From Acidobacteriota bacterium (lineage in GTDB: Bacteria; Acidobacteriota; Polarisedimenticolia; Polarisedimenticolales; JAIQFR01): a DNA stretch of 64,000 nt. The position numbers and the translations under genes are program-made. Positions 172 through 20,006 of the stretch are shown here, piece after piece; the stretch's first letter is position 1; every line of letters begins with the position of its first letter. The DNA lies in the NCBI GenBank assembly GCA_041494445.1, contig JBGQAU010000004.1:278-64277 (forward strand), in the 5' to 3' direction. The notes beneath the pieces are model-generated. The model was not told the origin of the DNA. It ran no database searches and was given only the letters and a program-made list of their open reading frames with translations.

Positions 172-1245
172 TTGTCTATTACTAATAGACGCGCTACTAT
201 TACGGACATGGTTCCTCCAAACGACGCCATCATCCACCGTTGCGTGGAACGCCTGCGCGAACTGCCGTTCGTGGAGGAGGTCACCCTGCGCCAGGAGGTC
301 GACCGACTCGCCGGCAGGGTCGACGGGGTGATCCGCGTCGTCACCACGACCACCAAGAAGGACTACGTGATCGAGGCCACTCGAACGCACCTGACCCAAA
401 CCGTCGTGCAAGGAGTGATCGCTCGAGCGGCTCGATACGCGCCCACACCATGGATCTTGTTCGCGAGGCACGTGGGGCGCCCTCTGGCCCACCTGCTCGC
501 CGAGCAAGACGTGAACTTCGTGGATCTGGCAGGTAACTGCCGGCTCCGCGTGAATCGGAAGCACTTCGGAATGATCGAAGGACGCCCCCCCGAACGCCGC
601 CCCCGGGAAGGACGTGGCATCGGTGTACCGGGCCTGCAGATTCTGTTCGCAATCCTCGTCCGACCGGCGCTTCTGAACGCGCCGATCCGCACCCTCGCGG
701 AAGCCGCGGGCGTGGCAAGAGCCACCGCTGCGGACCGACTCGCTCAGCTCCGGGAGCAGGGCCTCGTCTTCGAGATGAACCGAGAAAAGCGCCTCGCCGA
801 ACCTCGGCGAATCCTCGATCGATGGCTGAAGGGCTACGAAACGCAGGTTCGCCCCCGCCTTCTCATCGGGCGGTACCGAACCCAGGACCGGGATCCGAAT
901 GCCCTCGAGCAGCGCATCGAGCAGGAGCTCGGCAACGATCTCGGATGGGCGTGGGGTGGCGGCGCGGCCGCGTACCGGCTCACCCGGTACTACCGTGGTC
1001 CGGACACGACCGTGCACATCCAACCGGATCCCGGGATCGATGTCGTCAAGCGTCTGCGCGCCCTCCGCGCGAACGACGGACCGCTGATCCTGATGCGAGC
1101 GCCCGGGCCGATCGCGTTCGAAGGCGAGCAGCCCCGCACGGTGAACCCGCTCCTCATCTACACGGAGTTGCTGTTCGCCGAAGACAAGCGGGCCCGTGAG
1201 GCGGCCGACATGATTCAGAGGAAGTACTTGGGACATCTCACATGA
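172..1245 (+). CDS. AbiEi-like (type IV TA) antitoxin / wHTH regulator, putative
   Basis: 357-aa ORF with coding-like composition. It shares a 4-nt ATGA overlap with the downstream nucleotidyltransferase-like ORF. The central segment is HTH-like (IRTLAEAAGVARATAADRLAQLREQGLV). The family assignment is from recollection of AbiEi architecture. Confidence 0.5.
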   Translation: MSITNRRATITDMVPPNDAIIHRCVERLRELPFVEEVTLRQEVDRLAGRVDGVIRVVTTTTKKDYVIEATRTHLTQTVVQGVIARAARYAPTPWILFARHVGRPLAHLLAEQDVNFVDLAGNCRLRVNRKHFGMIEGRPPERRPREGRGIGVPGLQILFAILVRPALLNAPIRTLAEAAGVARATAADRLAQLREQGLVFEMNREKRLAEPRRILDRWLKGYETQVRPRLLIGRYRTQDRDPNALEQRIEQELGNDLGWAWGGGAAAYRLTRYYRGPDTTVHIQPDPGIDVVKRLRALRANDGPLILMRAPGPIAFEGEQPRTVNPLLIYTELLFAEDKRAREAADMIQRKYLGHLT

Positions 1246-2030
1246 ACGGCTTCGTGCCGACCCACGTTCCGGTTCTGCGGGCGTTGGGAGAAATCTGGGG
1301 CCCCGATCGTTTCATCGTCATCGGCGCGGCGGCCGTGGGTTATCACATCGGCATGACCTGGCGCGGAACGCTCGACCTCGACCTGTCCGTCGCCGCTGGA
1401 ATCGAGAAATACGAGGCGGATCTCGAAGGCCTGGGCTGGCGTCAAGACGAGAAGGTGCCGCAACGCTGGTATTCGCCCGAGGATCTGATCATCGATGTCG
1501 TCCCTGCAGAGCCGAATTCGATCCGTGCCGGCAGTTTCGCCTGGCCGGATGGCAGCACGATGAACCTGCTCGGATTCCGGCTTGCCTTCGCGGATGCAAT
1601 CCCGGTCGAGATCGGACTCGCAACCAACATTCGAGTCGCGTCGTTGAGGTCGATCGTGGTCCTGAAGATGTCTGCGTATCTGGACACGCCGTGGGAACGG
1701 GAAACCGACCTCGCGGACATAGCGCACATTCTGGAAGCGTTCGTCGGGCCCGACGCGGACGAACGATGGAGTCCCGAGGTCATCGAGCTGGGCCTCGACT
1801 ACGACGACGTGAGCCCGTACCTGCTCGGGAGCCAGCTCGCAACGGTGGTGGACGGACCCGAGTCCACGCTCATCCGTCGATTCCTGCGTTCAGCCGAAGA
1901 CGACACGGATGGACTGGCGACACTTGGGCGGATGGCGCGTCGCGCGCCGGCCGGCTGGCGGGATCCCGACTCGCTCCGATCGCGGGTCCGAGCGTTCGGC
2001 CGGGAACTTGGCGTAAAACGGCACCTTTGA
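1242..2030 (+). CDS. AbiEii/AbiGii-like nucleotidyltransferase toxin, putative
   Basis: The N-terminal motif IGAAAVGYHIGMTWRGTLDLDLSV matches the GG-x-A...R-x-T-x-D-[IL]-D pattern of AbiEii-type NTases. It is translationally coupled to the upstream ORF. Confidence 0.55.
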   Translation: MNGFVPTHVPVLRALGEIWGPDRFIVIGAAAVGYHIGMTWRGTLDLDLSVAAGIEKYEADLEGLGWRQDEKVPQRWYSPEDLIIDVVPAEPNSIRAGSFAWPDGSTMNLLGFRLAFADAIPVEIGLATNIRVASLRSIVVLKMSAYLDTPWERETDLADIAHILEAFVGPDADERWSPEVIELGLDYDDVSPYLLGSQLATVVDGPESTLIRRFLRSAEDDTDGLATLGRMARRAPAGWRDPDSLRSRVRAFGRELGVKRHL

Positions 2031-2170
2031 GCGCGGCACACGACTCTTGACAGATCCTCAAGACGGGCATGGGCGAGTGCGAGAACGACATCCTCGCTGC
2101 GCTGCCGAACCGGCGATCCCCCTGGCGCTCGGGGCGTGCTGCACCAGCTCGCCTCTCGGATCGCGCGTCC

Positions 2171-2247
2171 GTGCGCAACTCGCGCAACTCTACGCAAACT
2201 CTACGCAACAGCATGGAAGCGGTGGACACCGATGGAAGCGGTGGACA
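2171..2247. repeat. Two sets of short tandem direct repeats (iteron-like)
   Basis: GCGCAACTC GCGCAACTC TACGCAAACTC TACGCAAC lies at 2173-2209. ATGGAAGCGGTGGACA occurs twice, at 2213-2228 and 2232-2247, separated by 3 nt. Confidence 0.6.
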
Positions 2248-2254
2248 AGAAAAT

Positions 2255-2289
2255 GGGCGCCGTTTCGGAAAAAGCTTGAAACGGCGCCC
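2255..2289. terminator. Perfect 12-bp inverted repeat hairpin, terminator-like
   Basis: GGGCGCCGTTTC (2255-2266), an 11-nt loop, then GAAACGGCGCCC (2278-2289), followed by TCGAAATTTT. A short T-run is also present on the opposite strand. Confidence 0.5.
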
Positions 2290-2350
2290 TCGAAATTTTC
2301 CCTCATAATCCGCTGGTCCCAGGTGTGCTCGCCCTTCGGGCTCGCCACCG

Positions 2351-2424
2351 GAGAGGAATCTGGCTTCTCTTGACGCGTTCGCCTCCGGCGAACGCTCTCG
2401 CCGGTTCGAGTCCTAGTGGGGACA
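2351..2424 (+). other. tRNA-like 3' segment (copy 2, degenerate)
   Basis: Same layout as copy 1: GAGAGGAA..., a perfect 9-bp hairpin GCGTTCGCC-TCC-GGCGAACGC, then GGTTCGAGTCC and TGGGGAC-A. The T-stem pairing is poor, so this is probably a decayed duplicate. Confidence 0.3.
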
Positions 2425-2520
2425 TTCGGTGCTCCAGAGGCGACTGACGGTCGCTCTCGGGCCGAACCGGACGTCTTGGGGATGCGGACGGGAACGACGG
2501 GACAGAAGGATGGAGGCGAG

Positions 2521-3123
2521 GTGAACAGAGTCATCCTAGAGATCTTCTCCGACTACCTCTGACCGTACTGCTGGCTGGCGGAGCCGGCCGTGCACGAGCT
2601 CGTGAAATCGGACCCGGCCGTCGAGATCGTCTGGCGCGCGTTCGAGTTGCGTCCCGAGCCCGTCCCGACCCTCGATCCGGGCGGAGAGTACCTGCAGCGC
2701 GCTTGGGAGCACTCGGTGCATCCGCTGGCCGAGAGGCTGGGGGTGACGATGCGGCTCCCGGCCTTCCAGCCCCGCTCCCGACGGGCGCACGAGGCGGCGC
2801 ACTGGGCGCGGTCGCGAGGGCGCTTCGACGATTTCCACGCGGCCGTCTTCCGCGCCTTCTTCGAGAGGGGGGAGGACATCGGTGGGATCGCGGTCCTCGT
2901 CTCCCTCGCCGAGGCGCAAGGGCTGGACGGCGAGTCGTTACGCGACGCGCTCGAGCGTCGCGAGTCCGAGAAGAGCGTGCTCGCCGACGAGCGTGAAGCG
3001 GAGGCGCTCGGGATCCACGGCGTCCCGGCGTTCATCGCGGATCGACGAGCCGCGCTGACCGGCGTTCAACCCGTGGAAAACCTAAGGAAGATCGTCGAGC
3101 GCGTTCGCGCCGCGAGGGGATGA
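2521..3123 (+). CDS. DsbA/FrnE-family thiol:disulfide oxidoreductase with in-frame TGA (probable selenocysteine, U-P-Y-C redox motif)
   Basis: GGAGG at 2512-2516 is followed by GTG at 2521. The frame reads MNRVILEIFSDYL-TGA(2560-2562)-PYCWLAEPAVHEL and continues into track ORF 2590..3123. The TGA sits where the family has the first Cys of CPxC, and a hairpin follows it. Confidence 0.7.
2573..2589 (+). promoter_or_regulatory. SECIS-like hairpin downstream of the in-frame TGA
   Basis: GGCTGGC-GGA-GCCGGCC forms a 7-bp stem including one G-U pair. It starts 10 nt after the TGA and has G residues in the apical loop. Confidence 0.45.
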
Positions 3124-3189
3124 ATCCGGCGGGCATCGGGCGCCCGTACTACATCAGCGGCGTGAGCTCCACCGAGAGCCGGGGAGCGG

Positions 3190-3368
3190 TCAGAACGCAA
3201 GCCAGGCCATCACGAAGAACGTGTCGTTTCCCGAGGCGTTCCGGCCGGTGTCCGCGTAGTTACTCCCGCTCCCGTCGAACTTCCCGTACGCCGTGTACTG
3301 GAGCGAGAGTCTTGCGTTCTGCCACGGCATGAAGTCGAAGCCGGCGACGAACACAACGGGTCCGACGC
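3190..3368 (-). pseudogene. C-terminal remnant of an outer-membrane beta-barrel protein
   Basis: The minus-frame tail ...FDFMPWQNARLSLQYTAYGKFDGSGSNYADTGRNASGNDTFFVMAWLAF* has alternating beta-strand character and a terminal aromatic residue. Upstream, the frame runs into the icl coding region, so no room remains for a full gene. Confidence 0.35.
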
Positions 3369-5639
3369 CTAGGTCGGCGGCGGCCCCGTCTTGTCGATCA
3401 GACGCATCAGCGCGCGGCGGTCGGGTTCGAGCAGCTCGGCGATCCGATCTTTGTGGACTTCCGCGACGATGATGTGCCCGACCTCGTTGCGGACGTCGCG
3501 GAAAATCCCGTGGCTCTTCATCTTCCTGGCCTGGTACTCGTTGTCCTCGGTCGGATCGACGTAGTGCACCAAGGACGCCTTGTACCGGTGAATCAAGAAA
3601 AGGGTCACCAGGGTCATCAGCCTCTTCTTGCGCAGGGATCGGTCGAACGCGTTCTGGTCGCGAACCGAGAGGATGCTGCGGTCTCGCCGGTCGTGGATGT
3701 TGGCGAAGATGACGTTCGCCTTTTCCTCGCCCGTCTGGCTGAAGAGGCCCAGCTCCAGGACTTCCGAGCCGGGGGTGTGCGGCCGCAGATGCACCCGCAG
3801 CTCCAGCGGGAGCTGGTAGTGTTTTGCCCACAGGCCGAGCCACTCCGCGAGTAGCTTGGGCGGAACCTCGGTCTGGACCAGATGCTGGACCTGGGTCGAG
3901 CCCTTCCCCATCGCCTTGGTCGCCGCGGTGTGGCCGGTGGAGGCCATCAACGCGCTGTCGAGCCGCGGGCCGCCCACGAGGGTCTGCGGCGTCCGGTACG
4001 GCGATTCGAGCAATCGGAATTTCCTCTGCAGGCGCGCCAGGGCCAGCATGCCGTCCTGTCTCAGGGCTGCGGCGAATTCCTCGGCCGCGAGGCCGTCGAT
4101 CTGGTGCCCTCCGTACGTAATGAAGTTGAAGACGTAGCCGAGCTTCCCTAGCTCTTCCGGAAAGCGCCTCATCTCCTCGTCGCTCATTCCGGTGGTGTCC
4201 CAGTTGAACGACGGCGAGAGGTTGTACGCGAGCATCTTGTCGGGGTACTCGGCGTGAATAGCGCGCGCGAACGTCCGGGCGTCCTCGAGGTCGGCCGTCT
4301 TGGTCTCCATCCAGAGCAGGTCGGCGAACGGGGCGACCGCGAGCGACTTCGAGGCCGCGTACTCGATCCCGCTCTCGACCTGGTAGTAGCCCTCGGGCGA
4401 CTTCGTCGGCTCGCAGTCCCAGTTGACGTGGATGCCGAGCGACAGAGCCTTCTCGCGAGCGGCGTAGAAGGAGGCCTTCCGGGCGAAAGCCTGCCACTCC
4501 TCGACGCTCACGTCGAAACGCTGTCCCTCGGCCAACCTGAGGGACAGCGCGTCCGCCACCGCCTGGCCGTACGTCTTCAGCCCCGCTTCCGCCTCCCAGG
4601 CATCCACGCAGCGAGTCAGGATCCCGTCGAGAGCCTGCTCGAGGATGGGCGATTTCGCGCTCTTCAGCGCGCTGGCTGCATCCCTGACGAGCGCCGTCAC
4701 ACCGGTCCGCTCGAGCCACTTGAAGGCGGCGTCGTATTCGACCTCGGAGATCGCATAGAGGAGGTGCCCGCGGGCCTCGCCGATCCCCAGATCGTGGAGC
4801 ATCTTGAGGATGGCGATGTTGCAGACCTTGTAGCTCGGCAGGTCGACGTTCGTCGCGCCGAGAATGAACGGCTGATCGCGCTCGTCGCCGCGTCCATCGA
4901 TGAAGGTTGCGGACTCCGCGTCGGTGCGGGCCACGATGATCCCCGGCACCCCCATGATGTCGAGCTGGAAGCGGGCAGCGTTCAGCCGCTTGATCTGCTC
5001 GTCCTGGGGCACCAGTACCTTGCCCCCCTGGTGGCCGCACTTCTTGACGCCCGGCTTCTGGTCCTCGATGTGGAAGCCGGGTATGCCCACCTCCACGAAA
5101 CGGCGGATCAGGTTCCGGACGTGGGCGTCGCCGCCGTGGCCGGTGTCGGCGTCGGCGATGATGAACGGCCGATAGTCGACGACCGGGGTGGTCTCGAGCT
5201 GTTTCGCGCTCATGCGCGCGCGGGCGAAATGCTGGTTCTTGTCGGCGGCCAGCAGCATTCGCACGATGGGAGCTCCCTCGTCCGGCACCTGGCTGAGCGG
5301 ATAGCTCGCCAGGTCGGCTCCCGGATCTTCCGCGCGCGATCCCTTCGCGGAGGTCGCCCAGCCGCCGAGGTAGATCGCCTCGATTCCGAGCCGTTTCATG
5401 GTCACGGCCTGGCCCGGGGAGTAGGGACCGAACGTGGTGATCTGGGATCGCTGCGCGAAGAGTTCCCGGAGGCGCTCGTAGAACGCCTCGCCCGCGGCCC
5501 GGGCGACGACGTAGTCGGTCCGGATGGTTCCGCGCTGCTCGGCGACCTCGCGAGGGGAATAGAGCCTCACGATCCCCTCGAATCGCGGGCTGTCGAGCCA
5601 CTCTCGGACCTCCGCGACCTGCTGCTCGAACGAAATCAT
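3369..5639 (-). CDS. aceA: Isocitrate lyase (long form, 756 aa)
   Basis: It carries the [12 protein letters not shown] (KKCGH) signature plus [10 protein letters not shown] and TDAESA. The start MISFEQQ at 5639 overlaps the malate synthase stop (ATGA). Confidence 0.9.
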
Positions 5640-7669
5640 ACGGAATGCCTGCCTCTCTCCTCGTCCCGCGCAGCGACGAAGTCCAGGTTCTCGGTGATCC
5701 GCGTGCCGTCCCTGGCGTACGCGTCCATGTACAGGCCGATCCGCCGTCTCGCCTCGTCGAGATCGTGGTTGTCCAGGTTGATGTTGAGGAGGTCGATGTA
5801 CCACGGTGCCTTGACGTCGGCCCGCACGTAGGTGCGGACGATCTCGCGGGCGATCGGAAGCGTCGTGTCCTTCGAGTCGTCGTGGACGTCCCGGTTCCCC
5901 GCGGCGCGGAGCTTCGCGTGCTCGGAGACGAGCAGCCTCTCGAAGAGCTCCGGGGTGAACGGATCGCCGGCTCTCGTCCCCGTGTCGGTATCGGCCTCGG
6001 TCAGGCGGGCGCGCTTGTGCAGCCACTCCCAGAGGATGCTCAGGCGGATCTCGCCCGTCGCCATGTCCTCCATCAGGTAGAGCACGTCGTCGTTCCCGAA
6101 GAAGTCGGCGGGCTTGAGCGCGGCCGCCTGAAACCCCTGTCCGAAGGCATTGCCGTACTGCAGGGCGACGCTCAGGAGGTCACGTGCCCCTCGGACGGTG
6201 CGGGGCGCGGGCTCGAGCGACGTGAGGCCGGCCGCATCGGCCCCGGTGTAGGTGAGGCGGGGGAACGGGCGGCCGAGCTGGTTGTCCTCTCCGATTCTCT
6301 CCCACACGGGTCGCACGATGTGCACCATCTTCCAGTGGGCGATCCACTTCCCGCTCGCGCCCTCGCGCTGTTCCCGCACGGCACCCGCGACGGCCTTCTG
6401 CATTCCGCTTTCCACCCCGGCCCGCGAGCCGACGGGGATGTTGGGCTCCATACCGCCCTGCCACAACGCGAAGCGCCCCTGCCGGTCGGGCGTGTTGACC
6501 GCGCGCCGGACGCGATCCTCGTAGTTCCTCATGTACCCGTATGTCATCGTGACGGCGTCGATGTTGGGGTTCTGGAAATCGGGATCCCACGCCATGGCAT
6601 CGGAAACGCTATTGATGTAGTCCCAGCGTCCGGTATTGAAGCCGACGAAGCGCGGGCCGAGAGCGGCGCGGATTTCCATGAGCTGGAAACTGGCCTCGAG
6701 CTGCTCGACGAGCACGTAGACCTTCACGGTTCCTCGGGCCAGGCCGAGGTGCGCTTCGAGCGCGGAGAGGATGTCGCTCCACAGCGCGGCTTCCTCGGCC
6801 GTCTGGATCTTGGGGAGGTACACGACCACGGACGCGCCGGAGCCGCGAAGCGCCTCGTGGTTGTGGACGACGTACAGCGCGGCATCGACGATCGACGCCG
6901 AGAACCCCCTGCCGTCTCTCCACCGCACGTGACGGTCGTCCAGGTGAAGCCCCCGGACTCGAAAGATCCTCGTCGTGAACTCGAGCTGCTTCCTCCATTC
7001 CTCGATGATCGGGCGTCCGAAGAAGCCCCGCGCCCACGCGTTCATCTCCTCGGCCACCTGGGCTGCGACCTGCAGGAAGACCGGGCTCGCTCCGATGGCC
7101 AGCTTGAGGTTCCGCTGGTTGTCGAGCGACATCGTCGAGATCTGACCGAGTGCGTCCTCGCCATCGAACATCCACCCGTCGGCGCCCGAGAGCAGGGCGT
7201 AGGCGACGTTCCGGATGCTCTTCTCGAGAGGCTCGTTCGGCTTCGCCGCGGGACCCGTCCCCTGGATCCACTGACGCCTCAGATCGGGAGGAATCTCGCC
7301 GCCCGCGAAGTTCCCCTCCCTGGCGTCACGGACCCTGATCCGCGTCCGCGAAATCACGGACTCCGGGTCGAGGAACCCGATCCTCTCCCTCGTTCGCGCC
7401 CGCTCCGCCCTCCGCCGGGCGCGAGCGGCCATGAGCGCTCTTCGATCGGGATCGAACCTCGCCAGAGCGGCGAGAGCCGACAACGCTCCGGGGGTGAAGA
7501 TGTCCGGGTACTCTCTCTCGACGCCGGCACGTAGCTCGAGCCCGGAGGCGCCGCCGGACGCGCCGGTATCCCTGAGTTTCGCATCCACCCCACAACTCAA
7601 GAGGGACCCCCGCTCCCGCGCCCGATCCGGCCCGGACCCTGCCCGCGGCTTCGATCCGCACGGTGGCAC
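5636..7669 (-). CDS. Malate synthase
   Basis: Motifs WMFDGEDA and [12 protein letters not shown], among others, support the family. It is translationally coupled to isocitrate lyase. The start codon is uncertain and the N-terminus may be shorter. Confidence 0.8.
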
Positions 7670-10038: not shown

Positions 10039-10731
10039 GTGAGTCTCGAAGTTCCTGCCATCCTGGAAGGCCGCGGGCTCGTGAGGAACTATCGCCTGGG
10101 CGCCACCGTGGTTCCCGCCTTGAGGGGAGTTCGTCTGGAGATCCGGCGCGGCGAGTTCCTCGTCCTCCAGGGACCCTCCGGATCGGGGAAGACGACCCTG
10201 ATGAACCTGCTGGGCCTTCTGGACCGGCCTGACGAGGGGGAGATGTTGCTCGACGGCCGCGGGATCGAAGGGCTGGACGAGAATGCCCTCGCGGACCTAC
10301 GCCGGGACCGCATCGGTTTCGTCTTCCAGACCTTCAACCTCGTTCCGGTCCTCACGATCGCGGAGAACGTGGAGTATCCGTTGATGCTCAAAGGCGTGCC
10401 CCCGATCGAGAGACGGCGGCGGGCCCACAGCCTGCTCGCCCGGGTGGGACTCGCCGGCAGGGAAGCGTCCCGACCGGACCTGCTCTCCGGAGGCGAACGT
10501 CAACGAGTCGCGATCGCCCGCGCGGTGGTCAACGAGCCCGACGTCGTTCTGGCGGACGAGCCCACCGCGAGCCTCGACACGCGGACCTCCGACGAGATCC
10601 TCCGCCTCGTGGACGAGCTCAACGAGGAACGTGGCGTGGCCTTCGTCGTGGCCACCCACGATCCGAAGGTGGTCGCGAAAGCCCGCCGAGTCCTCACCCT
10701 CCAGGACGGACGCTTCGTGGAGACGGAATGA
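10039..10731 (+). CDS. ABC transporter ATP-binding protein (LolD/MacB-type)
   Basis: Walker A GPSGSGKTT, signature LSGGERQRVAIARA and Walker B VVLADEPT are all present. Confidence 0.9.
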   Translation: MSLEVPAILEGRGLVRNYRLGATVVPALRGVRLEIRRGEFLVLQGPSGSGKTTLMNLLGLLDRPDEGEMLLDGRGIEGLDENALADLRRDRIGFVFQTFNLVPVLTIAENVEYPLMLKGVPPIERRRRAHSLLARVGLAGREASRPDLLSGGERQRVAIARAVVNEPDVVLADEPTASLDTRTSDEILRLVDELNEERGVAFVVATHDPKVVAKARRVLTLQDGRFVETE

Positions 10732-11954
10732 CCCTCTGGCACCTGGCCCTTCGCAACGTCGCCCGCAACCGGCGCAGAAGCCTGCTCACGGGGGGTGTCG
10801 TCGTATTCGGGTTCGCTGCCTTCGCGCTGGCGGGTGGCTTCATGGCGCAGAGCCTCGAAGGGCTACGCGAGGGGACGATCCGGAGCGGACTGGGGCACGT
10901 GCAGCTTGCCGATCCCGCGGAGTTCGAGGGCGGCGGCGAAGGGTCGCTGGAGCACGGGCTCGACGCGGCCGATCGGATCGAACGGATCCTGAGACGCGAT
11001 GCGGATGTGGTGGAGATCCTGCCGCGGATCGAATTCGTCGGGCTCCTGAGCGGGGAGGGCCGGTCCGTACCGTTTCTCGGAGTGGGACTCGATCCGATTC
11101 CCGAGGCTCGAACGATGGACTACCCCGACATCCTCGCGTCCGGCCGCTGGCTCAGGGACCGGAGCGAGCGCTGCGTCGTTCTCGGCGTCGGTCTGGCACG
11201 GGCGCTCTCGGTACGGGACGGGGACACGGTGACGATGCTCGCCACCACCGCCGATGGCGTCCTGAACGCCGTCGACGCGACCGTCGTGGGCCTGGTCGAC
11301 ATCCCGATCCGGGAGCTGAGCGAACGCTACCTGGCCACATCGCTGAGCCTGGCGGGCGAGCTGCTGGGAGTCTCGGACCGGGTCTCGAGGCTCGTCGTCG
11401 TGCTCCGCTCCGCCGGCAAAGCACCGGAAGCGCTCGAGAGGCTGAGGCAGCTGCTGCGGCGCGAAGGGATCGAGCTCGCCGGAAGAACCTGGGAAGATCT
11501 GGCGGTCTTCTATCGCCAGGTGCGTCTGCTGTACCTCGGGATATTCGGATTCATGGGGCTGGTCCTCGTGGTCGTCGTTCTCCTGGCCGCGGCGAACACC
11601 ATGCTGATGGCGGCGGCCGAGAGGACGCGCGAGATCGGAACGCTTCGCGCCCTCGGCACGCGACCGGGCCTGATCCGGCGACTGTTCCTGCTCGAGGGCA
11701 TCCTTCTCGCGGCGGGCGGCTGCGTCGTCGGCGCGGCGCTCTCGGTCGTGCTTCGTCTCGTCCTGAACCACTCCGGGATCATGCTCCCGCCGCCTCCCGG
11801 CGCCGCCCACGGCTCGCCTCTTCACGTGCAGTTCTTCGGACTCGCATACGGGGCCGGAGCAGCCGCCATGTTCGTGACGCTCACGCTCGCGTCGTACTTT
11901 CCGGCCCGCCGTGCGTCGAGAATGTCGATCGTGGACGCCCTGACCCATGTCTGA
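10728..11954 (+). CDS. ABC transporter permease, FtsX/LolC/E-like
   Basis: 408 aa with an N-terminal TM helix, a large periplasmic loop and three C-terminal TM helices. It shares an ATGA overlap with the ATPase gene. Confidence 0.8.
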   Translation: MTLWHLALRNVARNRRRSLLTGGVVVFGFAAFALAGGFMAQSLEGLREGTIRSGLGHVQLADPAEFEGGGEGSLEHGLDAADRIERILRRDADVVEILPRIEFVGLLSGEGRSVPFLGVGLDPIPEARTMDYPDILASGRWLRDRSERCVVLGVGLARALSVRDGDTVTMLATTADGVLNAVDATVVGLVDIPIRELSERYLATSLSLAGELLGVSDRVSRLVVVLRSAGKAPEALERLRQLLRREGIELAGRTWEDLAVFYRQVRLLYLGIFGFMGLVLVVVVLLAAANTMLMAAAERTREIGTLRALGTRPGLIRRLFLLEGILLAAGGCVVGAALSVVLRLVLNHSGIMLPPPPGAAHGSPLHVQFFGLAYGAGAAAMFVTLTLASYFPARRASRMSIVDALTHV

Positions 11955-12738
11955 CCGTGACCGAGTCGGGCGTCGACGCCCCGGAGGTCGACTCGGGGCC
12001 GGGATCGCACTCCTTCTCTTCACGGGGCTCGGCTCGCAGTCGAGCGCCGGGATCCCCGCGCAGGAGTTGCTCGAAGCCGCGGACGCGCCGCGGCACGTCA
12101 TCGAGGAGGGCGTGATCTCGGTGCGGGTGGTCGTGCGGGAGCGTGACGGGACCACCGCGGAGTCCGAGCTGGGGGTGTACGTCAGGGGCTCCGACAACAC
12201 CCTCTGCGTCTTCCGGGAGGGCAAGCAGAAGGGGAGGAAGGTCCTCGTGGTCGGGAACCGGGTCTGGTTGATCGTCCCGGGTTCGAAGCGTCTCGTCGCC
12301 GTCAGTGCCAACCAGCGGCTCCTGGGAGGAGCCTCGGTGGCCGATCTGGCCCGGCTGCGGCTGGCCGACGAATTCGACGGGACTCTGAGGGACGGTGCGG
12401 AATCCTACGAGGACATACCATGCTGGGTCCTGGATCTGAAGGCGAGAAGCGCGAGGTCTTCCTACGCCGCCGGCACGCTCTGGGTCGGAATGAAGGACCG
12501 ACTTCCACGACGGTTGCGCCTGACGCTGCGCTCCGGGAAAGAGGCGAAGGAAATTCTCTTCAGGTCCTTTCGCCGGGAGGGGAGCCGAGCGGTTCTCGCC
12601 CAGATGGAGATCCGGCACCTTCTCGCCCACGAGCGAGGGGAGGTGACCGTTCTCGACTTCCTTCGCTATCAGCCCGCGTCCCTGGATTCAGCGATCTTCT
12701 CTCCGGCGGGTGCGCAGTCCTCCCGCGACGCGCCGTGA
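11947..12738 (+). CDS. LolA-like outer-membrane lipoprotein-sorting protein
   Basis: It has a signal peptide. Its length and the C-terminal pattern (...MEIRHLL...VTVLDFLRYQPASLDSAIFSP) are typical of the LolA_like family found next to FtsX permeases. Confidence 0.6.
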   Translation: MSDRDRVGRRRPGGRLGAGIALLLFTGLGSQSSAGIPAQELLEAADAPRHVIEEGVISVRVVVRERDGTTAESELGVYVRGSDNTLCVFREGKQKGRKVLVVGNRVWLIVPGSKRLVAVSANQRLLGGASVADLARLRLADEFDGTLRDGAESYEDIPCWVLDLKARSARSSYAAGTLWVGMKDRLPRRLRLTLRSGKEAKEILFRSFRREGSRAVLAQMEIRHLLAHERGEVTVLDFLRYQPASLDSAIFSPAGAQSSRDAP

Positions 12739-12832
12739 AATCGTCGACCGGTGAGGGGGCCCGACGTGACCGCGCTCGGGAAGGTTCGCTCGGCGGCAGG
12801 GAGATCCTCGCCGCGGATGCGGGGGTCTTCGA

Positions 12833-13768
12833 ATGAGCCGGTGGTACACCCACGGCTGGAACACGACGACGTCGCTGCGGTTGATTCTCACCATCGTCCC
12901 GCGCGTGCCACGGTGGCTGGTTCCTGCCATGGGCGCCGTGACCACGGCGATCTGCCTCGCCGGCATGAAACGCGAGCGGAAGGCCGTGACACGAAACCTC
13001 CGTCGCGTTCTGGGTCGGGGCGGCTGGCGCCTGCGCCGCGTCGCCTGGAGCCTCTTCTACAACTTCAGCCGCTTCATGGTGAGCTACTGCGATCTGTCGA
13101 CCATGACTCCCGAGCGGCTGGGGTCGCGTCTTGCCGCGGATCCGTCCGGAGAGCATCGGATCCGCGCCGCTCTGGACCGCGGCAACGGCGTCGTCGCCCT
13201 CACGGCCCACCTCGGGAACTGGGAGGTCGCGACGCGGATGCTTCAGGGCACCGGACGTCCCGTACGCGTGGCGATGCAGCTCGAGCGGGCCAACGCGGCG
13301 GAGCGATGGCTGAATCGTCTGCGGGAGCAAGGGGGCGTCCGTGTCCTGCAGGTCGGGCAGGACCCGGGAAGCGTGCTCGCGCTCCGCGCCGCGCTCGCGA
13401 GGAACGAGATCGTGGCGATGCAGGGAGACCGCGCGCCGGGCGATCGGGTTGTCGAGGTCGACCTGTTCGGCGCGCCGTTCCGGTTTCCGCTGGGTCCCTT
13501 CCTGCTGGCGTATGGCTGCGATGCTCCGCTGATTCCGGCGTTCGTCTTGCAGGAAGGTTGGTGGCGCTGGCGCAGCGAGGTCGGCGAGCCGGTCCGGTTC
13601 CCGCGCACCGGAGACCGGCACGCCGACATCGTCGCGGGCGTCTCCCAGTACGCGGCGCAGCTCGAGCGTGTCGTCCGGTGTCATCCGGATCAGTGGTTCA
13701 ACTTCTACGACCTCTGGCCGTCGTCCGAGCCGGCGGGCTCGAATCGTGAGGGGTCACCGCGTGAGTGA
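12833..13768 (+). CDS. LpxL/HtrB-like lysophospholipid (lipid A-type) acyltransferase
   Basis: It has the HLGNWE (HX4[D/E]) acyltransferase motif and an N-terminal TM helix. Confidence 0.7.
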   Translation: MSRWYTHGWNTTTSLRLILTIVPRVPRWLVPAMGAVTTAICLAGMKRERKAVTRNLRRVLGRGGWRLRRVAWSLFYNFSRFMVSYCDLSTMTPERLGSRLAADPSGEHRIRAALDRGNGVVALTAHLGNWEVATRMLQGTGRPVRVAMQLERANAAERWLNRLREQGGVRVLQVGQDPGSVLALRAALARNEIVAMQGDRAPGDRVVEVDLFGAPFRFPLGPFLLAYGCDAPLIPAFVLQEGWWRWRSEVGEPVRFPRTGDRHADIVAGVSQYAAQLERVVRCHPDQWFNFYDLWPSSEPAGSNREGSPRE

Positions 13769-13848
13769 CCCCCTGGCCGGGAGAGGAACCGAGCGAGCGG
13801 CCTCGCGCTCGTCACGGGTCGCGCGCTTGGCATGATACGATATCTTCT

Positions 13849-14142
13849 ATGATCGAGGACGGTCCGCTGAGGCAGGAGCTGAAAGACCTGCTGCTAGCGA
13901 GGTTGCGCCTCCCGGGCGTGTCGGCGGACTCCATTCGAGACGACGATCCCCTCGTGGGGGGGCCGCTGGGTCTGGACTCCATCGACGTGCTCGAGCTCAC
14001 TCTCGCCGTCGAGGAGCGATACGGCTTCAAGATCGCGGACGAGAAGGTCGGGCGGGAGGCGTTCCGGTCGATCGCCAGGCTTGCCGAGTTCGTGCGCCAG
14101 CAGCGTGTCTCCGGCGGTGGCCCGGGATCCGCCCGTACATGA
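13849..14142 (+). CDS. Acyl carrier protein
   Basis: LGLDSIDVLEL is a phosphopantetheine attachment motif. It is about 97 aa from Met 29 of the track ORF, and its stop overlaps the KS start. Confidence 0.8.
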   Translation: MIEDGPLRQELKDLLLARLRLPGVSADSIRDDDPLVGGPLGLDSIDVLELTLAVEERYGFKIADEKVGREAFRSIARLAEFVRQQRVSGGGPGSART

Positions 14143-15353
14143 CCGGCGTGAAGCGCGAGTCTCGTGTCGTCATCACGGGCTGCGGGACCATCAACGCCCT
14201 GGGGCGCGACGTTCAGTCCTCGTGGGATCGTCTCGTCGCCGGCCGATGCGGAATCGGCCTTCTTAGCGCCCCTCTCGGAGGGGGACCCGTTCGGTTCGCC
14301 GCTGCCGTGAGCGAACCGCTGCCGGGAGCAGGCGCGTCGGCGATTTCTTCGCGGACCGCCCGTCTGGCTCTGGCGGCTGCGGAAGAGGCCGCCCGCCAGG
14401 CGAGGCTCTCCGAAATCGACGGCCGCGAGCGCGTCGGAGTGATCGTTGGAACGACGACGGGTGGAATCCGCGAGACGGAGGACTACTTCGTCTCCCGGCA
14501 GCGCGGGAGGCCCGGACGCCGCTCGGCCATCGTCGTGTTCGAGAAGGCCGGGACCTCCGACCTTCTGGCGACGCGGTTCGGTCTCGGGGGACCGCGTTTC
14601 ACGCTCCACACGGCCTGCGCCTCCGGCGCTTCGGCGATCGTGATCGGTGCCGAGTTGATTCGGGGCGGATATGTGGATGCGGTAATCGCCGGAGGCGCCG
14701 ATGCCCTGGCCCGCATGGTCCTGAGTGGTTTTCATTCGCTGCGGGTCGTCGCTCCGGAACCGTGCCGCCCGTTCGACCGCAGTCGATGCGGGCTCTCGTT
14801 GGGCGAGGGGGCCGGGATGATGGTTCTGGAACGAGAATCGCGTGCGGTGGAACGCGGGGCGGAGGTGCTGGCGGTGCTGCTCGGCGGAGGGCAGAGCACC
14901 GACGCGCACCACCTGACAGCGCCGGCTCCGGACGGCTGCGGTGCGGCCCGCGCGATCCGGGCGGCGCTGGCCCGAGCGAACGTCGCCGCGGAGGCGGTCG
15001 ACCACGTGAACGCGCACGGCACGGGGACCCTTCTGAACGACGCGGCCGAGGCGGCATCCATCACGGCAGTGCTCGGGAAGCGGACCCTACGGTGTCCGGT
15101 CACCTCGATCAAGGGGAGCATCGGACACACGTTGGGCGCCGCGGGAGCCATCGAGGCGGTCGTGGCGGTGCAGACCCTACGGACGGGGCTCATCCCGCCG
15201 ACCGTCGGTCTTCGCGAGCCCGACCCCGAATTCGGGCTCGATGTCGTCCAGGATCGTGCCCGCCGTGAGGATGTGCGCGTGGTTGTGTCGAACTCGTTCG
15301 GGTTCGGAGGCGCGAACGCCGTGCTCTGTCTGGGTAGGGCGGACTACCGATGA
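14139..15353 (+). CDS. Beta-ketoacyl-ACP synthase (FabF/FabB-type KS)
   Basis: The Cys-His-His triad is present in the contexts HTACASGASAI, VNAHGTGT and GSIGHTLGAAG. Confidence 0.9.
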   Translation: MTGVKRESRVVITGCGTINALGRDVQSSWDRLVAGRCGIGLLSAPLGGGPVRFAAAVSEPLPGAGASAISSRTARLALAAAEEAARQARLSEIDGRERVGVIVGTTTGGIRETEDYFVSRQRGRPGRRSAIVVFEKAGTSDLLATRFGLGGPRFTLHTACASGASAIVIGAELIRGGYVDAVIAGGADALARMVLSGFHSLRVVAPEPCRPFDRSRCGLSLGEGAGMMVLERESRAVERGAEVLAVLLGGGQSTDAHHLTAPAPDGCGAARAIRAALARANVAAEAVDHVNAHGTGTLLNDAAEAASITAVLGKRTLRCPVTSIKGSIGHTLGAAGAIEAVVAVQTLRTGLIPPTVGLREPDPEFGLDVVQDRARREDVRVVVSNSFGFGGANAVLCLGRADYR

Positions 15354-16309
15354 ACACTCCGCCCGTCGTCACGGGGATGGGTGCCGTCTGTCCTCTCGGC
15401 GAGAGCGTGCCTCAAGCGCTCGCCGGCTTCCGGAGCGCGGGACCCGCGGCAACTCGCGTGGACTTCGATTTCGGCGCGCGATTGTCCCCCAACCACAGGA
15501 GACGTCTCGACAGGCTCTCGCAGCTCGTGCTGGCGGCTTGTCTGGAGGCGGCCGAGCAGGCCACTTGGGGGCAGATCGACGGCGATCGGGCCGCGCTGGT
15601 GATCGGCACCGGCCTCGGCTGTCTCGAGAAAACCGAGTCCTACCTTCGTGGCATCGCGGACGAGGGTCTCGACTACGCGAACGCGATGAACTTCCCGGAT
15701 TCGATGGACAGCTCGCCTGCCGCCCACGTCGCCATGGCCCTCGGTTGCCACGGCCCGACCCTGACCGTCACGCAGCGCGAGATCACCGGCGAGAGCGCGT
15801 TGATACTCGCGGATCTCCTGCTGCGTCAGGGAACCGTGGATGTGGTCATGGTCGCCGCGGGGGACGCCGCGAGCCCGGAGCTCGAACGGCTCCTATCCCG
15901 CTTCGCTCCGGGATTACGGCCGGGGGAAGCCGCCGCCGCGCTCGTCCTCGAGACGACGGAGTCCGCGGCGCGACGTGGAGCGAGAATCATCGGATCGCTG
16001 ATCGGGCACGGGCAAGCCGGTTTTCCGCTCGCCGGCACGGCTCTGAGGTGTGGCGCGCCCGAAGTCCTGGCCAGGGCGCGGGAACTGGCGCTTTCCATGG
16101 CCGGGATTCCCCCCGGTCAGGCAGGCGAGATTCCCACCGTCGTGGCGGAGGAGATCTCGAGCCGCATCGGCTGGGTCCTGGCCGATGGCGTACTCCGCGC
16201 GGTCCTCGCGATGGATCGGATCGCTGCCCGGGCCGGGGGCGCCGCCATCGTGGCGCGACAGGCTCGAGGGGGCTCGTCCGCCGCGGTCGTCCTCGGGCCT
16301 GGACGGTGA
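15350..16309 (+). CDS. KS-like protein lacking the catalytic Cys (chain-length-factor-like)
   Basis: It has a KS N-terminal fold (VVTGMGAVCPLG). The position aligned by eye to the KS Cys reads TVTQREITGESAL, with no Cys. It shares an ATGA overlap with the KS gene. Confidence 0.65.
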   Translation: MNTPPVVTGMGAVCPLGESVPQALAGFRSAGPAATRVDFDFGARLSPNHRRRLDRLSQLVLAACLEAAEQATWGQIDGDRAALVIGTGLGCLEKTESYLRGIADEGLDYANAMNFPDSMDSSPAAHVAMALGCHGPTLTVTQREITGESALILADLLLRQGTVDVVMVAAGDAASPELERLLSRFAPGLRPGEAAAALVLETTESAARRGARIIGSLIGHGQAGFPLAGTALRCGAPEVLARARELALSMAGIPPGQAGEIPTVVAEEISSRIGWVLADGVLRAVLAMDRIAARAGGAAIVARQARGGSSAAVVLGPGR

Positions 16310-16312
16310 GCC

Positions 16313-16984
16313 GTGAGAATCGCGGCGCTCGTTCCCGCCTACGATGCCGAAAGCACGGTGGCCGACGTCGTGGAAGCGACCCGACGGGTTCTGCCCGAGG
16401 TCGTCGTGGTCGACGATGGGTCCTCGGACCACACCGCTACGGTGGCCCGAGGCGCAGGGGCCGTCGTGCTTCGGCTGGACTCGAATGGAGGAAAGGGAGC
16501 CGCGCTCCGTGCGGGTTTCCGGCATCTCCTCGAAGGCGGCGCCGAAGCCGTGGTGACCCTCGATGCGGATGGGCAGCACGACCCCGGCGAGATTCCGCGG
16601 CTCGTGGAACTCTGGAGCTCGTCGGGCGCCGGGGTCGTGATCGGATCGCAGCTCCACCTGCGAGGAGGGATGCTCCCGATCCGCCGCTTCGGCAACCGTT
16701 TCGCGGACCGCGCGATTTCCTTCTTCGCGGGTGTCCGCGTCGCGGGCACGCAAAGCGGATTTCGACTCTACGACGCACGCCTCCTGCGTTCTCTGCGACT
16801 TACCGGCACCGGGTATGAGCTGGAGAGCGAGATCATCGTCAAGGCCGTAAGGTCCGGCTTCCGGGTGCTGAGCATTCCCGTTCAGCTTCGATGGGTCGAG
16901 GGATCGACGACCAGCCACTACCGGCCGTGGCGGGACACCGCCCGCATCTGCGTCAGGGTCGTGGCGAGCCGTCTGCGGCGCTAG
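16313..16984 (+). CDS. Family 2 glycosyltransferase
   Basis: VVVDDGSSDHT and LDADGQHDP motifs are present. Confidence 0.8.
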   Translation: MRIAALVPAYDAESTVADVVEATRRVLPEVVVVDDGSSDHTATVARGAGAVVLRLDSNGGKGAALRAGFRHLLEGGAEAVVTLDADGQHDPGEIPRLVELWSSSGAGVVIGSQLHLRGGMLPIRRFGNRFADRAISFFAGVRVAGTQSGFRLYDARLLRSLRLTGTGYELESEIIVKAVRSGFRVLSIPVQLRWVEGSTTSHYRPWRDTARICVRVVASRLRR

Positions 16985-16986
16985 GG

Positions 16987-17739
16987 ATGTTTCTCCGGAT
17001 TTCCGTCGCGATGCACCTGGCGCTCCTGGCGCTGTTTCTGCGAAACGGGCCGCTGACCCTGGCCCTCCTGCTCGGTTACGGCATCTACCACGGGTTTCTC
17101 GCATGGGGGGTCCTCCATCCCAGGAGCAGGATCTTCGGACCCAACCGATCGCGACTTGCGACGGAGGAGCGGGTCGCGGTTCTGACGTTCGACGATGGCC
17201 CCCACCCCGAGGTCACGCCCCGAGTCCTCGAAATCCTCCGCGCAAGGGGAGTACGCGCGACGTTCTTCCTCGTCGGGAGGCACGTCGAGCGCCATCCGGA
17301 TATCGTTCGACGGATCGCGGCGGACGGACACACGCTGGGTTGCCACTCCTACCAGCATTCGTACCTCTTCTGGTCTCTACCGGCGAGCCGGCTCCTGCGC
17401 GAGGTCCGGGCATCCCAGGCGGCGGTCGAGGCGGCGTCGGGAAGGCCGTGCGTATGGTTCCGCGCCCCCGTGGGAATGAAAAACTGCCTTCTCCACCCGG
17501 TCCTCGCTCGCTTCGGACTCGACCTGGTGAGCTGGGATGTCCGTTTCCCGAAGAGGACGTCCACCGACCGCGAAGGCCTCCGTCGGCACCTCCGGCGGAG
17601 GGTCGCGCCGGGAAGCATTCTTCTCCTCCACGACGGGCACGATCGCAAACCCGAAGGGAATCCCGCCGTGCTCGAGGTTCTCCCCCGGCTTCTCTCGGCG
17701 CTCGACGCGATGGGGTACCGGTGCGTCCCGCTGCTTTAG
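16987..17739 (+). CDS. Polysaccharide deacetylase (NodB homology) with N-terminal TM helices
   Basis: LTFDDGPHP, GCHSYQH and LLLHDG motifs are present. The start is taken at Met 33 of the track ORF, 2 nt after the GT2 stop. Confidence 0.8.
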   Translation: MFLRISVAMHLALLALFLRNGPLTLALLLGYGIYHGFLAWGVLHPRSRIFGPNRSRLATEERVAVLTFDDGPHPEVTPRVLEILRARGVRATFFLVGRHVERHPDIVRRIAADGHTLGCHSYQHSYLFWSLPASRLLREVRASQAAVEAASGRPCVWFRAPVGMKNCLLHPVLARFGLDLVSWDVRFPKRTSTDREGLRRHLRRRVAPGSILLLHDGHDRKPEGNPAVLEVLPRLLSALDAMGYRCVPLL

Positions 17740-17958
17740 GTCGCCTTGACCTTCCGTACCGCGCGGCGGCCGAGTCGCCGAAGGCGGCCGACGGGCGCGA
17801 TCGGTCGCGATTTTGCCGGTGGGACGCACGGAGCCGGAGGAGGTAAGATGCGCGCGGCCGCCGGACGACGGGGACCGGGCGGGGGGCACTCCCGAGCCAC
17901 GGGGGGGCGCTCCCGAGCCGGGACGCGCGCCGGCCCGCGAGGAGTCGAGGAGAACAAC

Positions 17959-19833
17959 ATGCCCGGAAGGCTCGCCGAGCGGGCGATCGTCGCAGCTTCC
18001 GACGTTCTCTGGGTAGTCTTCCAAGGCATCCATAGAAGGTTCGCGCCGCGCGTGTTCCAACCCAAATGGGCTCCGTCGTCCCTGCTCAAGAGCACCCAGC
18101 GGACCCACCCGGCGCTCGGGTTCCCCCGTCGCACCCGCTCGCTCTGCCCCACCTGCGTGAAGGACGCGCGGGCCCGGGTGCTCGCGGGAGAACTGGCCGT
18201 CGAGGACCTCGTCGGCGGACACCACGCGGAAATCGACGCCGACATCATCGAGCGCGACGGCAAGGTGTGGATGGTGAAGACCTGTCCCACCCACGGCCGA
18301 GTCGAGGACGTCCTCTCGACCGACCCGGCGTTCCTGCGCCGGATCGAGTCCCTCGACCCCGGGCGCGATTTCCGAATGGCCCCCGACAGGCTTCACGAGC
18401 ACGGTTCGAGCGCGATTCGCTACGGACGCGGATCGGTGCTCACCATCGATCTCACCAACCGCTGCAACATGATGTGCAATCCGTGTTTCGCGGACGCGAA
18501 CCAGGTCGGCTACGTACACGAGCTGGAGTGGCGAACCATCCAGGGAATCCTGGACAACGCCCTTGAGGTGAGGCCCCGACGGCAGATGTCGGTCCAGTTC
18601 TCGGGCGGGGAGCCGACCCTCTCCCCGTACTTCGTCCCGGCGGTTGCCTACGCGCGGAAGCTGGGGTACATGGCCGTGCAGGTCGCGACCAACGGGATTC
18701 GCTTCGCCCAGGACCCCGAGTTCGCGCGTGAAGCGGCTCGGGCGGGGCTGAGGCTCGCCTACCTGCAGTTCGACGGCGTCGGGAACGAGGCGAATCGCCA
18801 CCGGAACGTGGCCAACTTGTTCGACGTCAAGCGGCGCGCCATCGAGAACCTGCACGCCGCCGGTGTGGATGTCACGCTCGTGGCCACGATCGTCAACACG
18901 ATCAGCAACCACCAGGTGGGCCCCATCATCCGCTTCGTCATCGAGAACATCCACAAGGTCAACGCGCTCGTCTTCCAGCCCGTGTCCTTCACGGGACGGG
19001 ACGAGGACGTGGATGACGAGACACGGGCGCGTCAGCGATACACGCTGGCGCAGCTCGCTCATGACGTGAAGGACCAGCTCGGGACCACCGAGCCGCTGAG
19101 AGACTGGTTTCCGCTCTCCGCCTCCGGACCGTTCGCCGATCTCAAGGATCTCCTATGGGGTCCTCAGGCGGAGTGGGGCTCTCTGAGCTGCAGCTCGCAC
19201 CCCGACTGCGGCGTGGCCACGTTTCTCGTCGTCAACGAGAAGACGAGGCAAGCGGTGCCCGCCATGCGGCTCGTGAACATCGACCGCCTGCTCGAGGACC
19301 TCAGAGTCATCACCGATTCGGCTCGGGGTCGGCGGCTCACGCTATTCCAGACCGCGCTTGCTCTGCTCCGGAACATGAAGGTGAGCGGGTTCCCGGCGGA
19401 CCTGAGCGTCTTGGACCTCCTGAAGACCCTCGACGGGTACAACCGGATGACCCTGGGGATCGCGGACCGGAACCGCCACGTGTGGCGGTCCGTGATGGTA
19501 GGCAGCATGTGGTTTCAGGACCTCTTCAACTTCGACTTCCAGCGGACCGAGATGTGCGTCATTCCTTACGGCACCGAGCGGGGAGAGATCTCGTTCTGCG
19601 CGTACAACACCGGCATCGGATGGCGGAGGATCATCGAGGCCATGCACAAGACCGCGACGACTGCGGAGTGGAACCGTAAGATGGGTCGCCATGCGGTCTA
19701 CGCCGGCGGTCGGCCGATCCCGCTTCCCCCGGTGGAGAGCCCGGCGACCGGGGCGAGCCGTATCGAGACACGACGGGTCGACGAGCGGGCAACGGTCGGG
19801 GCCGCGGCCCGAGAGGGCTCTTCCGGCGCGTGA
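17959..19833 (+). CDS. Radical SAM enzyme resembling the tetraether lipid synthase family (Tes / GDGT-MAS, MJ0619-like)
   Basis: It has the CX3CX2C motif CNMMCNPC. The N-terminus carries SLCPTC...KTCPTHG, a zinc-ribbon/rubredoxin-like pair. The C-terminus has ISFCAYNTGIGWR. It is 624 aa from the ATG at 17959, which has a GAGGAG-type RBS. The family call is from memory of this architecture. Confidence 0.6.
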   Translation: MPGRLAERAIVAASDVLWVVFQGIHRRFAPRVFQPKWAPSSLLKSTQRTHPALGFPRRTRSLCPTCVKDARARVLAGELAVEDLVGGHHAEIDADIIERDGKVWMVKTCPTHGRVEDVLSTDPAFLRRIESLDPGRDFRMAPDRLHEHGSSAIRYGRGSVLTIDLTNRCNMMCNPCFADANQVGYVHELEWRTIQGILDNALEVRPRRQMSVQFSGGEPTLSPYFVPAVAYARKLGYMAVQVATNGIRFAQDPEFAREAARAGLRLAYLQFDGVGNEANRHRNVANLFDVKRRAIENLHAAGVDVTLVATIVNTISNHQVGPIIRFVIENIHKVNALVFQPVSFTGRDEDVDDETRARQRYTLAQLAHDVKDQLGTTEPLRDWFPLSASGPFADLKDLLWGPQAEWGSLSCSSHPDCGVATFLVVNEKTRQAVPAMRLVNIDRLLEDLRVITDSARGRRLTLFQTALALLRNMKVSGFPADLSVLDLLKTLDGYNRMTLGIADRNRHVWRSVMVGSMWFQDLFNFDFQRTEMCVIPYGTERGEISFCAYNTGIGWRRIIEAMHKTATTAEWNRKMGRHAVYAGGRPIPLPPVESPATGASRIETRRVDERATVGAAAREGSSGA

Positions 19834-19847
19834 CGACGGGAGCCGAA

Positions 19848-20000: not shown

Positions 20001-20006
20001 TCTACG

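Follow-up and report, generated by a model that had tools for sequence, protein, structure and literature searches.

A predicted FrnE-type selenoprotein gene from an Acidobacteriota genome, recorded in public databases as an N-terminally truncated protein

DsbA-like (COG2761) proteins with a UxxC motif, where U is selenocysteine (Sec), were first reported as a new selenoprotein family in a survey of the Sargasso Sea, which found nine sequences (Zhang, Fomenko & Gladyshev 2005, PMC1088965) and in which the selenoprotein forms were sporadic among cysteine-containing homologues (PMC1088965). Such proteins were later found in several genomes (PMC1794560), were counted in 41 organisms (Peng et al. 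2016, PMC5029168), and appear in a 2026 review as 'DsbA-like protein form 1', with the Pfam domain PF01323 and the UxxC motif (PMC13188914). Here we describe a gene at positions 2521-3123 (forward strand) of a 64,000-nt stretch of DNA, hereafter the window, from an Acidobacteriota bacterium (GenBank assembly GCA_041494445.1, contig JBGQAU010000004.1). With a probability that we put at roughly 0.88, it encodes a 200-residue FrnE-type (COG2761, DsbA-family) thiol-disulfide oxidoreductase, probably without a signal peptide and with the redox centre Sec14-Pro-Tyr-Cys17. An earlier, sequence-only reading of this DNA had proposed a selenoprotein here and remarked that DsbA-like selenoproteins figure in computational surveys, as indeed they do (PMC1088965, PMC5029168, PMC13188914). 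All coordinates are positions in the window, and P and L numbers are labels of homologous proteins and DNA loci, respectively.

The gene shares with the form 1 family the same Pfam domain, a Sec placed first in UxxC, a bacterial-type selenocysteine insertion sequence (SECIS) right after the UGA codon, and widespread Cys homologues. Membership in the DsbA-like (COG2761) UxxC family fits these features, an assignment that rests on shared Pfam and COG class and on the motif, not on the published representatives AACY01178397 and NIP15863.1. The JGI label of homologues, 'predicted DsbA family dithiol-disulfide isomerase', is one that we take to be the label of COG2761 itself. The window's clade differs from the form 1 family in its composition: 96% of the sampled loci are Sec forms, and metagenome-assembled genomes (MAGs) and soil-type metagenome contigs dominate it. 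So placed, the gene is a mis-annotated addition to a selenoprotein family known since 2005, and it leaves our knowledge of selenoprotein biology unchanged.

Among proteins of solved structure, the best relatives are FrnE of Deinococcus radiodurans (DR_0659; 5cnw, 5cp1, 5co3, 5coh, 5xwh; E 1.9e-18) and SCO1869, with FrnE being the top match by phmmer as well as by Foldseek. Cadmium and radiation induce FrnE, which is a cytoplasmic disulfide reductase/isomerase (PMC8945050). Residues 3-195 align with it at about 27% identity, and the two proteins have in common the context of the active site, a hydrophobic strand followed by S-D-x-x-[C/U]-P-[WY]-C; like FrnE, the window protein probably has no signal peptide. 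Sec14 aligns with the first Cys of the FrnE CPWC motif, which is Cys22 in the published numbering (PMC8945050), and this pairing of UPYC with CPWC is what is expected of the FrnE subfamily (cd03024); FrnE uses Cys at this position, whereas the window gene is predicted to use Sec. FrnE also carries a C-terminal CxxxxC tail, proposed to help regenerate the active site (PMC8945050), which is absent from the window protein: the latter stops at residue 200, with Cys17 as its last Cys. Since the S. roseofulvus and D. maricopensis FrnE proteins likewise lack the tail (PMC8945050), it is not strictly defining. Nevertheless, with neither a CxxxxC tail nor any Cys besides Cys17, the recycling partner or route of the window protein must differ from that of FrnE. 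A scan of the neighbouring open reading frames (ORFs) gave no DsbB partner gene near the window gene.

Gene structure, fold and the TGA codon

Direct reading of the sequence confirms the elements on which the sequence-only reading had built its case, namely a Shine-Dalgarno-like GGAGG at 2512-2516, a GTG start codon at 2521-2523, 4 nt further on, and an in-frame TGA at 2560-2562, 13 codons after the start. The frame from GTG 2521 reads VNRVILEIFSDYL, then the TGA, then PYCWLAEPAVHEL, and meets its next stop only at the TGA at 3121-3123; the full-length coding sequence (CDS; 2521-3123) thus comprises 200 codons including that of Sec14. The residues between the initiator V/M and the TGA read NRVILEIFSDYL. 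The TGA occupies the first position of the redox motif U14-P-Y-C17, whose last position is encoded by the TGC at 2569-2571; Cys17, the resolving residue of the UxxC centre, is the sole Cys in the protein, and its codon is a Cys codon in all 94 distinct Sec-form sequences that we compared.

The proposed start, 13 codons before the TGA, holds up well in the homologues. A start codon stands at the equivalent position in 90 of 98 homologous loci (ATG in 72, GTG in 16, TTG in 2), which fixes GTG 2521 as the start, and a Shine-Dalgarno-like tetramer (GGAG, GAGG, AGGA or AAGG) lies 5' of the equivalent start in 43 of the 98. The peptide EIFSDY[VL] just 5' of the TGA is conserved among the homologues. 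The mechanical ORF list, on the other hand, contains the gene only as a 177-aa ORF at 2590-3123 (forward strand), and the identical 177-aa product is recorded in NCBI, Logan and JGI. This ORF is an artefact that arises when TGA 2560 is taken as a stop, so that gene callers cut off the start of the gene, and it lacks both strand beta-1 and the redox motif. Its first codon, which the sequence-only reading had called an internal Met, is in fact a GTG that encodes Val24 of the full-length protein.

The read-through product, with Cys typed at the TGA, matches the Pfam DSBA domain PF01323 with E 8.3e-36 (124 bits against a cut-off of 25.6), its residues 6-191 lying on profile positions 2-189 of 191. 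As the match starts at profile position 2, the domain needs the 13 codons 5' of the TGA. Together with the likeness to FrnE, this bears out the assignment to the DsbA/FrnE family that had been made from the sequence. The fold was modelled on P0004, a Cys homologue 71% identical to the window protein (AlphaFold2; mean predicted local distance difference test score, pLDDT, 84.8). The model has the DsbA topology, with a strand, the [C/U]xxC motif at the N-terminus of a helix, a strand, a helical insert, two strands and a helix, and it superimposes on FrnE structures with template modelling (TM) scores of 0.81-0.86; the FrnE likeness of 0.86 for the window protein is therefore one taken via P0004. 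Weaker structural matches of the model were to 2-hydroxychromene-2-carboxylate (HCCA) isomerases, kappa-class glutathione S-transferases and periplasmic DsbAs.

Thioredoxin-fold oxidoreductases have a conserved cis-proline loop. In the window protein this corresponds to Val168-Pro169 (codons at 3022-3027), which is invariant in the alignments, lies just before strand 170-173 in the P0004 model and is expected to sit opposite the U-P-Y-C centre. With the periplasmic DsbA of the E. coli type (CPHC), the protein shares the thioredoxin fold with its inserted helical domain, a CxxC-type centre and the cis-Pro loop; it differs in that it probably has no signal peptide, and the structural match is weaker (TM about 0.55-0.69). 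The N-terminus, MNRVILEIF, is already strand beta-1, and the C-terminus reads ...VERVRAARG. A protein that opens directly with strand beta-1 has no room for a signal peptide and, by analogy with FrnE, is most likely cytoplasmic.

The TGA was then placed in an alignment of loci comprising 25 close homologues from species-representative genomes, 80 from a metagenome scan, the window itself, and L001, an independent Logan assembly (run SRR29605729). Of the 105 close-homologue loci, 101 have TGA in the aligned column and the remaining four have TGT or TGC; 23 of the 25 genome loci have TGA, and 78 of the 80 metagenome loci were counted, 76 of them with TGA (L112 was unscorable). Named MAGs bearing TGA include Pyrinomonadaceae and Chloracidobacterium (Acidobacteriota), a Gemmatimonadetes bacterium, a Betaproteobacteria bacterium, Desulfobacterales, Rhodospirillaceae (Alphaproteobacteria) and Verrucomicrobiia. 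The only four Cys-codon forms among the 105 are L021:3034 and L025:3040, both from Vicinamibacterales MAGs, L107:1537 and L111:62, and from their sequences they look like Sec-to-Cys reversions. These four loci, the full-length Cys proteins and the CPWC of FrnE establish a Sec/Cys pair at the TGA column, as the sequence-only reading had anticipated in placing the TGA at the first redox Cys and in suggesting an alignment against Cys homologues.

A protein search returned 1641 relatives, and most of the closest 120 are 173-186 aa long and cover 85-91% of the query; these truncated entries start with L, M or V, and not all at the same place. A minority, 196-223 aa long, covers 97-100% of the query and has Cys at the Sec column, with four showing W instead (P0012, P0031, P0074 and P0111). 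For P0031 the encoding DNA (L121:1501-2094) has TGA at the W column, and the other three genes on this short contig all end in TAA; the gene caller evidently used a code with UGA=Trp, and the W entries are hidden selenoprotein calls. More distant relatives (about 30% identity) read WSDIACPWCY, with Cys at the Sec column, like FrnE. That standard annotation would miscall the gene, as had been suspected, is thus seen both in the lengths of its closest homologues and in NCBIfam, which has no model for the DsbA-like family (its best match, an unrelated seleno-lipoprotein family, scores 34.7 bits against a 190-bit cut-off). The lack of a model explains the truncation of such genes in public annotation.

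The SECIS-like hairpin and its conservation

Within the CDS, a hairpin at 2572-2590 starts 10 nt past the TGA and consists of an 8-bp stem (5' arm 2572-2579, 3' arm 2583-2590) closed by a GGA loop (2580-2582), with a folding energy of -13.2 kcal/mol. The sequence-only reading had a hairpin at 2573-2589 with the same offset from the TGA; the offset stands, but those bounds enclose only the 7-bp core of the stem. A published model of the bacterial SECIS (bSECIS; PMC13188914, Fig. 2) requires a loop of 3-9 nt, an upper stem of 4-16 bp, a G within the first two loop positions, a UGA-to-loop distance of 16-37 nt and a minimum free energy (MFE) of -7.5 kcal/mol or lower. The hairpin lies within all four constraints of the model, with a 3-nt loop that starts with GG, 8 bp, a 17-nt spacing and an energy of -13.2 kcal/mol, in agreement with the earlier proposal of a bacterial SECIS at the expected spacing. 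The energy is at or below -7.5 kcal/mol in 91 of 94 Sec-form homologues as well. A lower stem present in the MFE fold of the window (2565-2568 with 2590-2593) was dropped, as it is not conserved.

Compared with the E. coli fdhF-type SECIS and the bSECISearch consensus, the window element shares the position of the hairpin inside the CDS, about 10-11 nt past the UGA, and a small loop starting with G-G; its UGA-to-loop distance is 17 nt, and its energy is well below -7.5 kcal/mol. The window hairpin has a GGA triloop or, in a second register discussed below, a GGCGG pentaloop, and binding of SelB to it is a prediction. To our knowledge, the hairpin has no sequence similarity to the E. coli SECIS element.

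With columns numbered from the U of UGA, the stem occupies 13-20 and 24-31. In 88 distinct sequences taken together, 96.7% of its cells are paired, and the changes that it tolerates are one-sided only (C-G to U-G and U-A to U-G). Where position 16 is U, forming a U-G wobble, the adjoining pair is U-A in 45 of 49 sequences, while with C at position 16 the partner is A or G equally often. In these alignments the association fits selection on stem stability, as if tandem wobbles were avoided, although shared ancestry could contribute. The core of the element, TGG-YTG-GCG-GAG-CCR-GCC (window 2572-2590), is almost identical across loci L002-L120, in MAGs labelled as Acidobacteriota, Gemmatimonadota, Beta- and Alphaproteobacteria, Desulfobacterales and Verrucomicrobiia. 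Such likeness across phyla may reflect either horizontal transfer or strong constraint.

We measured codon diversity at each conserved amino-acid position in the 94 distinct Sec-form sequences. Downstream of the TGA, the Leu codon at +5 is exclusively CTG or TTG, the Ala codon at +6 is GCG in 91 of 93, the Glu codon at +7 is GAG in 89 of 92, the Pro codon at +8 is CCA or CCG in 89 of 94, and the Ala codon at +9 is GCC in 88 of 90. Among the 96 conserved degenerate codons of the gene, no others are as tightly constrained at synonymous sites as +6, +7 and +9; over the remainder of these genes, GCG makes up 47% of Ala codons and GAG 60% of Glu codons. The 13 codons 5' of the TGA are conserved at the protein level, and their synonymous sites vary freely. 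In the Cys forms, a small control with n=4, every hairpin is weaker (-3.9 to -8.3 kcal/mol in the main register), GCG at +6 is lost in three of the four, and two of those three are also without GAG at +7. This synonymous constraint indicates that the hairpin is under selection at the RNA level. Taken with the TGA in 101 of 105 loci, the frozen synonymous sites at the hairpin make the feature one beyond chance, and comparison across these homologues points to a TGA that is a family character rather than an accident.

Weighing the selenoprotein reading

If the gene is expressed as a selenoprotein, translation would begin at GTG 2521, and at UGA 2560 SelB carrying Sec-tRNA(Sec) would bind the hairpin at 2572-2590, so that Sec would be inserted in place of termination. 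Sec14, at the N-terminus of helix alpha-1, would act as the attacking nucleophile, and the Sec14/Cys17 pair would cycle between the selenol/thiol and selenenylsulfide states, facing the Val168-cisPro169 loop. The centre may reduce or isomerise disulfides of cytoplasmic substrates.

A number of observations weigh against this interpretation. The post-TGA stretch in the window folds at -18 to -19 kcal/mol, yet folding alone is not significant (z = -1.5 against dinucleotide shuffles, with 19 of 200 shuffles folding equally well), an unremarkable score for sequence so rich in GC (67.6%). Neither hairpin register shows a single compensatory double change, and shuffle controls were not exceeded; the structural case is consequently one of conservation and synonymous-site constraint, and we do not claim covariation. 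The sequences also accommodate the second register, with a 7-bp stem and the GGCGG loop. In it the frozen C30 has no partner, stability is lower in 87 of 94 sequences, and the loop lies only 14 nt from the UGA, so that this register falls outside the bSECIS spacing range. Rfam gave no match at gathering thresholds for the whole window or at E up to 10 for 2400-2750, and no curated RNA family covers the element. Finally, a search for selA, selB, selD and tRNA-Sec, which drew on ARAGORN for tRNAs, a Pfam scan of 30 large ORFs of the 64-kb window, and the called genes over about 10 kb past the window end, returned none of them. ARAGORN reported no tRNA in the window and only one tRNA-Pro across 25 related loci. 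No other selenoprotein gene was apparent in the window either, its TGA-interrupted frames being ordinary gene ends or antisense artefacts.

The lack of Sec machinery in the window would also be expected if the gene were a pseudogene, its TGA a nonsense mutation of a former Cys codon, from which TGC or TGT is one substitution away, with no functional full-length protein being made. We consider this very improbable, as 101 of 105 loci, drawn from several phyla, share the TGA, and independent decay would not yield conservation of both the upstream peptide and the start codon together with frozen synonymous sites downstream. Just as improbable, to our minds, is that translation really begins at GTG 2590 and yields the 177-aa protein, with the upstream similarity being non-coding or regulatory. 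This is the version in the ORF list and the public databases, and GTG 2590 is a possible start codon. However, such a protein would be without strand beta-1 and the entire redox motif, even though the Pfam profile reaches position 2, the 13 upstream codons keep their amino acids and vary freely at synonymous sites, and the scattered starts of the truncated database entries are the mark of gene-caller output and not of a conserved start. The sequence-only reading had itself allowed that the conserved protein might begin after the TGA, an idea with which the conservation of upstream peptide and start codon among homologues is at odds.

Decoding of UGA 2560 as something other than Sec, whether as Trp or Gly by a reassigned code, as Cys or Trp by near-cognate read-through, or as Cys via the Sec pathway, might be suggested by the public records with W and by the negative search for Sec machinery in the window and about 10 kb beyond it. 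We rate it slightly below the two preceding alternatives. UGA is not reassigned, given that 28 of the 41 window ORFs end in TGA; the W records stem from TGA codons on short contigs such as L121; and a conserved hairpin with a G-G loop at SECIS spacing is the signature of SelB-dependent recoding. In thioredoxin-fold chemistry, moreover, Trp or Gly at the nucleophile position of a CxxC centre would abolish redox activity. That TGC or TGT was misread or misassembled as TGA, a possibility which the sequence-only reading had raised for sequencing and which would require only a single-base difference, is the least credible of all: the same TGA occurs in the independent Logan assembly of SRR29605729, the calls for two members of a JGI cluster likewise have 177 aa, and about 100 homologues have the same codon.

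The predicted selenoprotein has consequences mainly for annotation. This gene and about 100 database homologues are recorded as N-terminally truncated proteins of 173-186 aa without an active site, a few further records show a spurious Trp at the Sec column, and a well-populated, soil-associated clade is added to the DsbA-like selenoprotein family. The frozen synonymous sites offer a clean, family-specific SECIS signature that can be used to find more members, and the gene marks its host as a likely Sec user. We have also entertained the broader idea that these loci form a distinct, almost obligately Sec-using FrnE-like clade, given that 96% of the sampled loci have TGA and that the SECIS is near-identical in MAGs from Acidobacteriota, Gemmatimonadota, Proteobacteria, Desulfobacterota and Verrucomicrobiota, but we hold it tentatively and think it on balance unlikely. 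Were it true, surveys based on isolates would greatly understate how common Sec decoding is in soil lineages that are abundant and mostly uncultured. Horizontal transfer would also move the gene along with its SECIS, so that the gene could serve as a convenient marker of Sec use in soil metagenomes.

Neighbouring genes

The gene has no conserved neighbourhood among the sampled loci, with the commonest neighbour, a DUF4440/SnoaL-like gene, present in 10 of about 104, and a promoter and terminator scan of 2000-3500 gave nothing useful. Just 5' of it, an AbiEi antitoxin-like gene at 172-1245 (forward strand; PF09952, E 1.7e-15) shares 4 nt with a 262-aa ORF at 1242-2030 (forward strand) with a weak match to the AbiEii nucleotidyltransferase toxin (E 3.7e-4, below the Pfam cut-off); by their sequences, 172-2030 is likely a type IV toxin-antitoxin pair. 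In the 147-nt spacer 5' of the selenoprotein gene, GGTTCGAGTCC at about 2404-2414 (forward strand) resembles a tRNA T-arm and loop. We rejected it as such, since its flanks are unpaired and neither ARAGORN nor Rfam (E up to 10) returned anything; the likeness is probably due to chance, although it might conceivably be a decayed tRNA fragment beside the toxin-antitoxin genes.

On the opposite strand, 3369-7669 holds a glyoxylate-shunt pair of isocitrate lyase (ICL) and malate synthase (5636-7669). The ICL ORF is 885 aa long, with the ICL domain beginning at residue 137, and overlaps the malate synthase ORF by about 390 nt, so that the true start of ICL is probably well inside the mechanical ORF. 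Further along, 10039-23793 encodes an ABC ATPase, an FtsX permease and a LolA-like protein, then a lipid-A-type acyltransferase and two ketoacyl-synthase-like genes, followed by a polysaccharide deacetylase and a radical-SAM protein with an HMPTM zinc ribbon, with an aromatic amino acid lyase on the other strand; the whole resembles a biosynthesis-export locus for a lipid or pigment. At 26561-30264 (forward strand), two small ORFs and a PAS-HisKA_3 histidine kinase come after a KaiC homologue (594 aa, E 8.5e-107), and a second HisKA_3 kinase lies at 31121-32473 (reverse strand). The window also encodes an ATP-grasp/Ddl-like protein, whose named relatives reach no more than about 65% identity and come from Acidobacteriota MAGs (Polarisedimenticolaceae, Sulfotelmatobacter) and from one MAG of Planctomycetota. 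Towards the end of the window, 59059-63998 carries a beta-oxidation pair (3-hydroxyacyl-CoA dehydrogenase/enoyl-CoA hydratase and thiolase) and then a 2-hydroxyacyl-CoA dehydratase D-component, while beyond the window end (L122:11808-16088) there are a BcrAD/BadFG-type activator of 2-hydroxyacyl-CoA dehydratase and an ADP-forming CoA ligase.

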